DNA of 7,690 nucleotides from a virus. Taxonomy: Duplodnaviria; Heunggongvirae; Uroviricota; Caudoviricetes. The DNA lies in IMG/VR virus record IMGVR_UViG_2597490227_000004; one strand, 5' to 3'. The notes under the pieces are model-generated. The model saw only the letters and a list, made by a program, of their open reading frames with translations. It did not search any database and was not told the origin of the DNA. Of this stretch, positions 2,749 to 3,133 are shown in pieces (positions within the stretch are counted from its first letter, which is position 1; each line of letters begins with the position of its first letter). The position numbers were made by a program, and so were the translations under genes.

Positions 2749-2931
2749 TCAGTACGCTACGGCAAATGTCATTGACGTTTTTGGAAACTGCTGTCTGACT
2801 TTTTTGATTTCAGAATTAGCCTGACGGGCAATGCTGCGAAGGGCGTTTTCTTGCTGAGGTGTCACTGAACAAGCCCCATGTCGGCAAGCATAAGCACACA
2901 GAATATGAAGCCCGCTGCCAGAAAAATGCAT
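2749..2931 (-). CDS. ORF in the position of lambda orf61 (60 aa as drawn); true start and frame uncertain
   Basis: This ORF is in frame with an ATG at 2959-2961 that overlaps the orf63 end by 20 nt, but the two are separated by an in-frame TGA at 2932-2934. A competing 27-codon frame starts at 2945 (ATGA-coupled). Confidence 0.3.
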   Translation of the reverse strand: MHFSGSGLHILCAYACRHGACSVTPQQENALRSIARQANSEIKKVRQQFPKTSMTFAVAY

Positions 2932-2941
2932 TCAGTGGTTG

Positions 2942-3133
2942 TCATACCTGGTCTCTCTCATCTGCTTCTGCTTTCGCCACCATCATTTCCAGCTTTTGTG
3001 AAAGGGATGTGGCTAACGTATGAAATTCTTCGTCTGTTTCTGCTGGTATTGGCACAAACCTGACTCCAATTTGAGCAAGGCTATGTGCCAAATCAATACT
3101 CGTTCTTAACTCAACAGGAGATGCTTTGTGCAT
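2942..3133 (-). CDS. orf63: Lambda orf63-like protein (63 aa)
   Basis: Position, length and 5'-overlap pattern match lambda orf63 as I recall it; intact ORF. Confidence 0.7.
   Translation of the reverse strand: MHKASPVELRTSIDLAHSLAQIGVRFVPIPAETDEEFHTLATSLSQKLEMMVAKAEADERDQV

Follow-up and report, generated by a model that had tools for sequence, protein, structure and literature searches.

Which gene follows orf63 in the window (the whole 7,690-nt stretch analysed here, from an IMG/VR record of a Caudoviricetes virus) looks ambiguous at first, because the frame at the position of lambda orf61 runs into an in-frame TGA after nine codons and competes with a second, coupled frame. The question matters beyond this virus, as lambda and the Shiga-toxin (Stx) phages are reference systems in which "orf61" has been deleted, frameshifted, modelled and given a pro-lytic role, with the lambda Δorf61 phenotypes concerning the lysis-lysogeny decision and prophage induction (PMC6213356, PMC4195576). 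A first-pass annotation of the sequence had left three readings side by side, namely a nonsense mutation with reinitiation, a sequencing error, or a gene structure different from that of lambda. Our comparisons favour a version of the last (probability about 0.8), in which the region after orf63 would hold several short, translationally coupled genes of the leftward early (pL) operon, a 27-codon gene (p27) and then a 71-codon gene (p71), not a single orf61.

Reading frames downstream of orf63

All features lie on the minus strand. The orf63 homologue (DUF1382, 63 aa; 2942..3133; RefSeq WP_000548516.1 in Escherichia coli ATCC 11775) ends with a TGA at 2944-2942, and three frames compete 3′ of it. 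In frame A, an ATG at 2961-2959 overlaps the orf63 end (2942) by 20 nt, as in lambda orf61, and opens a nine-codon remnant of the lambda "orf61" frame (2932..2961) that reads MRETRYDNH before the in-frame TGA at 2934-2932; this stop is directly abutted by the ATG (2931-2929) of a 60-codon ORF (2749..2931, 60 aa; stop TGA 2751-2749). These coordinates, already given by the first-pass annotation, proved exact, and the competing coupled frame that it mentioned is real: frame B is p27 (2862..2945; MTTTECIFLAAGFIFCVLMLADMGLVQ), a predicted single-pass membrane peptide of 27 codons whose ATG (2945-2943) shares an ATGA with the orf63 stop and whose TGA lies at 2864-2862. Frame C lacks a start of its own and contributes a tail that ends in NDICRSVLKKHRETVTLKGFTPTHLSLAIGMLNGVFKER and a stop at 2654.

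Further along, p71 is present as a pseudogene (2654..2865) with a GTG at 2865-2863 and its normal stop, TGA, at 2656-2654. A 31-codon ORF (p31; 2562..2657) is ATGA-coupled to that stop and contains a terminator-like hairpin (2633-2615), and orf73, a TraR/DksA zinc-finger gene (2334..2555), is the conserved neighbour downstream of p71. Four overlapping junctions stand in series, by 28 nt at orf60a/orf63 and as ATGA or GTGA at orf63/p27, p27/p71 and p71/p31. We propose that p27 would be initiated where its ATG overlaps the orf63 stop (ATGA) and yield a 27-residue hydrophobic peptide, and that p71 would start at the (A/G)TGA overlap with the p27 stop (2865), presumably by termination-reinitiation, yielding a 71-residue three-helix protein in most phages; in the window, a 4-nt deletion between 2783 and 2782 inactivates p71 and leaves a 38-aa stub. 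Set beside other ATGA-coupled small genes in phage early operons, the locus is mechanistically ordinary, p27 being the link that is absent from the annotations examined.

The predicted ribosome-binding sites are arranged accordingly for two of the starts, with a Shine-Dalgarno pairing of −5.6 kcal/mol at 6 nt from the p27 ATG and of −4.7 kcal/mol at 7 nt from the p71 GTG. The other two ATGs (2961 and 2931) have their Shine-Dalgarno sequences 13-14 nt away, the duplex of the 2961 ATG (−4.9 kcal/mol) lying 14 nt from the start. The nine-codon remnant is most likely not a gene, because it lies within and just past the orf63 3′ end, has this poorly placed Shine-Dalgarno sequence, and has ACG in place of its ATG in other lineages.

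A candidate small membrane-peptide gene

The p27 peptide has a GRAVY of 1.62, a best 15-residue window of 2.87 and one hydrophobic stretch of ~20 residues; p27 would be translated and its product inserted in the inner membrane. In size, hydrophobic stretch and early-operon site it is like other small single-pass hydrophobic phage and prophage peptides, such as membrane proteins of <50 aa in lambdoid early regions, but it has no sequence relative outside its own locus: NCBIfam, PHROG and Pfam searches and tblastn against phages found none. By tblastn, p27 is confined to E. coli-type lambdoid phages, and deep conservation is absent. Within this range the ATGA overlap is kept with four upstream gene ends that are unrelated or divergent, three of orf63 (ending DQV, RDPA and RKLA) and one of a Dam-type methylase in BL21 (ending REAA). 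Two loci carry ATG>ATA at the p27 start.

Substitutions were counted after ungapped, anchored extraction gene by gene with a divergence filter. The 184 loci, sampled arbitrarily, held 25 distinct variants, of which 12 were synonymous in the p27 frame (7.1 expected, P=0.027). Restricting the count to the 11 variants that recur in three or more loci left 7 synonymous ones where 3.0 were expected (P=0.010); the excess was not seen among rare variants. When the same variants were scored in the frame of the 93-aa "Orf61" annotated in Stx phages, 7 of 25 were synonymous and no excess was seen (P=0.53 and 0.79), and the five commonest variants all fall on p27 third positions and are all non-synonymous in the 93-aa frame. 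As controls, the test returned P=0.0001 for orf73, P=0.004 for p71 and P=0.42 for orf63, the last, for a protein with a solved NMR structure, indicating that it is low-powered at such divergence. These counts argue moderately for purifying selection on the p27 frame, the other frames giving P>0.5, and p27 is probably a translated, sequence-constrained gene. RNA structure was considered as a cause of the conservation of the p27 stretch and rejected, as none was found (z=+1.6).

Alternatively, p27 might only couple orf63 ribosomes to the p71 start, its peptide being functionless and its sequence unselected. This would suit the ATGA/GTGA overlaps at both ends, the occurrence of p27 only together with p71, the apparently recent insertion at the ancestral p71 start described below, and the rare variants, which have no synonymous excess. 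It sits poorly with the bias of the common variants towards silent third positions, with the identity of the peptide in ~101 of 113 metagenome loci, and with its marked hydrophobicity and mostly conservative replacements (F>L, V>I, V>A, A>S, A>V, T>A), and we consider a coupling-only role unlikely.

Returning to p27 as a constrained gene, its surroundings suggest how it may have arisen. In distant p71 homologues, the junction reads ACGGAGGC(T/C)GC-ATGACACCTGAA, so that the methylase stop overlaps the p71 start, while BL21 reads CGGGAGGCTGC-ATGACAACC, where the methylase stop overlaps the p27 start. Because the same context, GGAGGC(T/C)GCATGACA, precedes p71 in the distant homologues and p27 in BL21, and because p27 and p71 both begin with ATGACA, the p27 segment looks like an 80-nt insertion behind the ancestral p71 start. 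The ancestral start would then now serve p27, with p71 re-coupled through a new (A/G)TGA.

This comparison changes the reading of the published orf61 phenotypes. With the published orf61 deletions and the 1-bp frameshift (PMC6213356, PMC4195576), effects of p27, of p71 and of polarity are indistinguishable. Every orf61 knock-out so far also removes p27, and lambda p71 is already frameshifted. We tentatively entertain the possibility that p27 is a genuine inner-membrane peptide gene, unannotated separately in the records examined and born by an 80-nt insertion that captured the p71 ribosome-binding site and ATGA start, in which case the Δorf61 phenotypes would stem from p27 or from polarity and not from an "Orf61" protein.

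Part of this picture was already known, namely the truncation of lambda Orf61 (PMC8614690), the frameshifted allele (RefSeq) and the listing of p27, as an uncharacterised or hypothetical protein of 27 aa, by a few GenBank and UniProt records. What is added here is modest and consists of the synonymous excess in p27 and its absence as a separate annotated gene from the phage and RefSeq records examined, the lambda reference annotation included. We found no literature that treats p27 as a gene or describes the lambda orf61 frame as stopped in most relatives, literature searches with the peptide sequences gave no match, and the extra ORFs that PMC8614690 cites from Liu et al. (2013) for this region are of 7 and 31 aa, not 27.

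The 71-codon gene and its frameshifted copy in the window

The next gene has been annotated in three incompatible ways, with 61 aa for lambda, with 93 aa for Stx phages and, where RefSeq PGAP annotates E. coli chromosomes, with 71 aa. The 93-aa model begins at the ATG right after the TGA (2931) and is the one deposited for 933W (L0070), Stx2-II (p099) and Phi24B (vb_24B_7c; phrog_303); Orf61 has also been modelled structurally as 93 aa (PMC8614690). Sequence comparison and structure prediction indicate that the 71-codon model is the right one, that the 22-codon extension beginning MHFSG lies outside the protein, and that the 93-aa Stx "Orf61" is over-extended, because distant homologues are all 69-75 aa long with the same N-terminus. 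These relatives, found with HMMER against 1.84 billion representative proteins, share 31-63% identity over end-to-end alignments, all start 6-9 residues before an invariant Asn7, lack the 22-residue extension, and are encoded directly after exo or an MT-A70 methylase gene with an ATGA overlap. The normal product is 71 aa long and ends in GMLNGVFKER; AlphaFold2 (AF2) on the family alignment gave a three-helix model with a pLDDT of 89, whereas the first ~20-22 residues of the 93-aa form had a pLDDT of 40-53. The gene is intact in 78 of 80 IMG/VR loci and in 108 of 113 metagenome loci. Two divergent-looking matches (P0069 and P0075, ~51% identity) came from assemblies with multiple frameshifts and were excluded.

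In L086-type E. coli phages, p71 follows an unrelated 250-aa gene, with no orf63 or p27, and starts at the same Met. This arrangement, seen at L086 1241-2216 and in 8 of the 80 loci L195-L274, is a mosaic of the exo-xis region in which the 250-aa gene replaces orf63 and p27; the p71 N-terminus there differs (MTIEHNNALRSIACQANCEIKK), placing the recombination joint within the first ~10 codons of p71.

If the true gene were instead the 93-aa "Orf61" from the ATG at 2931, p27 would be a chance ORF and the window copy would be frameshifted to 60 aa. Besides being the deposited annotation (933W, Phi24B, Stx2-II; PMC8614690), this model can point to an extension that is open in every haplotype, although a 22-codon open frame is expected by chance in about one third of cases, and to one natural fusion: in Escherichia sp. 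E1V33 (L096 1090-1215, NZ_RHJI01000010.1) the p27 5′ region is 14 nt shorter, and an ATG with a strong GGAGG site reads MTISSGGLHILCAYACRHGACS in frame into p71, as a 93-aa-like protein. This locus is the sole counter-example found to the two-gene model and the sole addition from a scan of species-representative genomes, which otherwise returned mostly contaminating lambda DNA. Against the longer model stand the 69-75 aa homologues, the poor Shine-Dalgarno placement of its ATG, the lack of synonymous excess in the extension (0 of the 5 commonest variants silent), its low pLDDT, the exclusion of residues 1-23 from the model statistics in the structural study itself (PMC8614690) and the 71-aa PGAP calls in E. 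coli chromosomes, which together make it improbable that the 93-aa form is the true gene.

With 71 codons as the reference, the lesion in the window becomes visible. The GTG at 2865 and the N-terminal M-x(5)-NALRxIA motif are present at the coupled start (VTPQQENALRSIARQ), but the IG(V/M)LNGxF motif occurs only in the −1 frame after a GGAT deletion (2782..2783; TTTCC joined to AAAAACG, compared with TTTCCGGATAAAAACG), and a continuous ORF of ~71 codons is absent. The deletion truncates p71 to a product ending in KKVRQQFPKTSMTFAVAY, 38 aa from the GTG at 2865 to the TGA at 2749. In position the copy fits the family, whose members lie between recombination or methylase genes and TraR/orf73 and have a stop-start overlap with the upstream gene, and the window copy is a pseudogene member of the p71 family (phrog_303; 69-75 aa). 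Compared with Stx-phage Orf61 and the 71-aa RefSeq proteins, window 2865..2654 is the same gene, with the N-terminal 28 codons in frame and the rest in the −1 frame owing to the 4-nt deletion, the 93-aa annotation having 22 extra, unconserved residues. It was this downstream deletion, frameshifting a conserved 71-codon gene, that the first-pass annotation had overlooked, and because of it the 60-codon ORF is a chimera: its codons 1-22 run out of frame over p27, upstream of the p71 start, as the unconserved MHFSG extension of the 93-aa model, codons 23-50 equal p71 codons 1-28, and codons 51-60 are frameshifted past the deletion.

The deletion allele is stable, inherited and located in a dispensable region, and is not an error. 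It was found exactly in 118 of 5426 complete E. coli genomes and was absent from 80 arbitrary IMG/VR loci; in ATCC 11775, RefSeq annotates the same coordinates (EAS44_RS25775) as a frameshifted "cell division protein ZapA"; and relatives that share the flanking SNPs and retain GGAT have an intact gene (EC958; L004-L011). The allele could in principle be rescued by −1 frameshifting on the A6 run (2800..2805), joining EIKK to SQTAVSKNVNDICRSVLKK and on to FKER, and thereby the N-terminal helix to the C-terminal two. In favour, A-runs are slippery for tRNA-Lys, no stop interrupts the −1 frame between a point shortly before the run and the normal stop at 2654, and the allele persists in its 118 genomes. 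The zero frame, however, reads ATC-AAA-AAA-GTC, in which C-AAA-AAA-G departs from the canonical X-XXY-YYZ heptamer, and ~97% of alleles have this A6 run and need no shift, so that nothing suggests selection for slippage; as the region is in addition dispensable (PMC6213356), we judge such rescue very unlikely.

A second kind of disruption was seen in E. coli GCA_026134875.1 (L088 596-2000), where an insert of ~1.4 kb breaks p71 after codon 27. The interrupted frame ends in KKARQQ, and a new ORF of 66 aa picks up at QQFPDKNVDD. Because the insert ends in what resembles a transposase 3′ end, it is probably an IS insertion.

RefSeq names the 71-aa proteins "cell division protein ZapA" or "hypothetical protein". 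The name ZapA is not supported, because the Pfam match (PF05164) falls below threshold, with 16.1 bits against a cutoff of 23.8 (E=0.014, 33 residues covered). An NCBIfam search with p71 gave no match, and PHROG 303 has no assigned function. Structural comparison of the p71 model did not recover the homeodomain-like fold proposed in PMC8614690, and an ankyrin-repeat match to residues 42-65 in a single-sequence PDB search (E=3e-4) vanished when the family profile was used.

Lambda orf61 and the allele at position 2934

Escherichia phage ev207 and phage PhiR63_2 match window region 2560-3140 with 100% identity, as the E. coli ATCC 11775 chromosome does region 2740-3140; over the 581 bases of 2560-3140, identity to lambda is 96%. 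Frame A corresponds to the RefSeq lambda orf61 (NP_040613.1, lambda 30839..31024; phrog_26061), which lies at the same locus with the same ATG overlapping orf63 by 20 nt. An alignment of the window, lambda and phage 434 revealed three differences: a T in the window and 434 where lambda has G, A7 in lambda where the window and 434 have A6, and GGAT missing in the window only. Lambda thus has GGA, not TGA, at codon 10 of orf61, and the window lacks two lambda orf61 traits, Gly at codon 10 (TGA here) and the KKSQTAVSG end (A6 here). In 434, the frame from the ATGA overlap with the 27-codon ORF is open for 71 codons (MTPQQENALRSIARQANSEIKKARQQFPDKNVDDICRSVLKKHRETVTLMGFTPTHLSLAIGMLNGVFKER) and is annotated as a gene, whereas in lambda the extra A truncates p71 to a product ending in KKSQTAVSG, which is also the C-terminal end of lambda orf61.

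The 61-codon orf61 of lambda therefore exists only through two alleles, the less common G and the additional A of its A-run. From these alignments, it is a lambda-specific chimera of the orf63 overlap, an out-of-frame p27 region, p71 codons 1-22 and a frameshifted tail. Lambda Orf61 had already been described as unstructured and, next to the proteins of Stx phages, as one that "appears truncated" (PMC8614690). The suggestion that the gene structure of the window differs from that of lambda was correct but understated, as lambda orf61 is itself atypical and probably artefactual. The A7 run occurs in lambda and at least three other contigs (L001, L031, L209, L231), one of which carries the TGA allele and is therefore not lambda itself; frameshifts at this homopolymer seem to recur and to disable p71 with no involvement of the GGAT deletion in the window. 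A lambda-type A7 sequence with 100% identity was also present in assemblies labelled Shewanella, Bradyrhizobium, Chromatium, Paenibacillus, Kitasatospora, Oceanobacillus and others (L093-L114), and is almost certainly contamination by lambda control or vector DNA.

The TGA itself is the commonest allele: T stands at 2934 in 128 of the 184 loci, which were sampled arbitrarily. In IMG/VR, scanned by pattern (n=71 loci), the counts were T 41, G 25 and A 5, and a scan of metagenome contigs anchored outside the region under study (n=113 loci) gave T 87, G 23 and A 3; among 53 distinct haplotypes gathered by way of the orf63 protein, GGA is confined to lambda and a single further contig. Homologues thus have the stop at the same position. 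Position 2934 is the third base of p27 Thr4 (ACN), where G, T and A are all silent, and the codons GGA, TGA and AGA arise solely in a frame that is not used. Lineages with the A allele also lack the lambda-type upstream ATG, having ACG instead (GCAAACGAG; L088, L091). Although an ATG directly follows the stop, an origin of this stop as a nonsense mutation in a lambda-type orf61, with rescue by termination-reinitiation at TGA-ATG (2934-2929), or as a sequencing error at 2932-2934 can be rejected as extremely improbable, given that TGA is the majority allele and lambda GGA the minority one, that the upstream ATG is ACG in whole lineages, and that the sequence is identical across independent complete genomes and phage isolates (ATCC 11775, ev207 and PhiR63_2).

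For the window, the outcome is ordinary, a majority-allele stop in an unused frame together with a pseudogene, already flagged as such, in a prophage region that is dispensable. Beyond this, the comparison yields a modest gene-map correction for a reference phage and a candidate small membrane-protein gene.

The lambda/non-lambda junction, which had been predicted at 2749-2961, lies ~400 nt further on. Lambda homology is unbroken over window 2344-6418 at 97.2% identity, which sets the junction at ~2344, at the end of the TraR-like orf73 gene. To the left of 2344, an ASCH-domain gene (2008-2337) and a DUF4222 gene (1785-2024), both on the minus strand, replace lambda ea22 and ea8.5.

Between p71 and orf73, inside the 31-codon ORF, a terminator-like hairpin, AGGGAGCTACAGGCTCCTT followed by TTTTATTGTT, occupies window 2605-2633 on the minus strand; Bloch et al. 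(2014, PMC4195576) had predicted the same hairpin as a terminator, "t2", separating orf61 from orf73, and PMC8614690 cites an ORF of 31 aa from ribosome profiling of the region. In the 31-codon ORF (2562..2657), 9 of 28 variants were synonymous, no more than the 9.0 expected, so that what is conserved there may be the RNA. Elsewhere in the window, N runs at 482-555 (74 bases) and 1299-1489 (191 bases) interrupt the integrase gene and an excisionase-side ORF, which are therefore not fully readable, and the lambda cIII thermoregulator element (Rfam RF01804, 88.5 bits), expected in a lambda-type early-left operon, was found at 5356-5414 on the minus strand.
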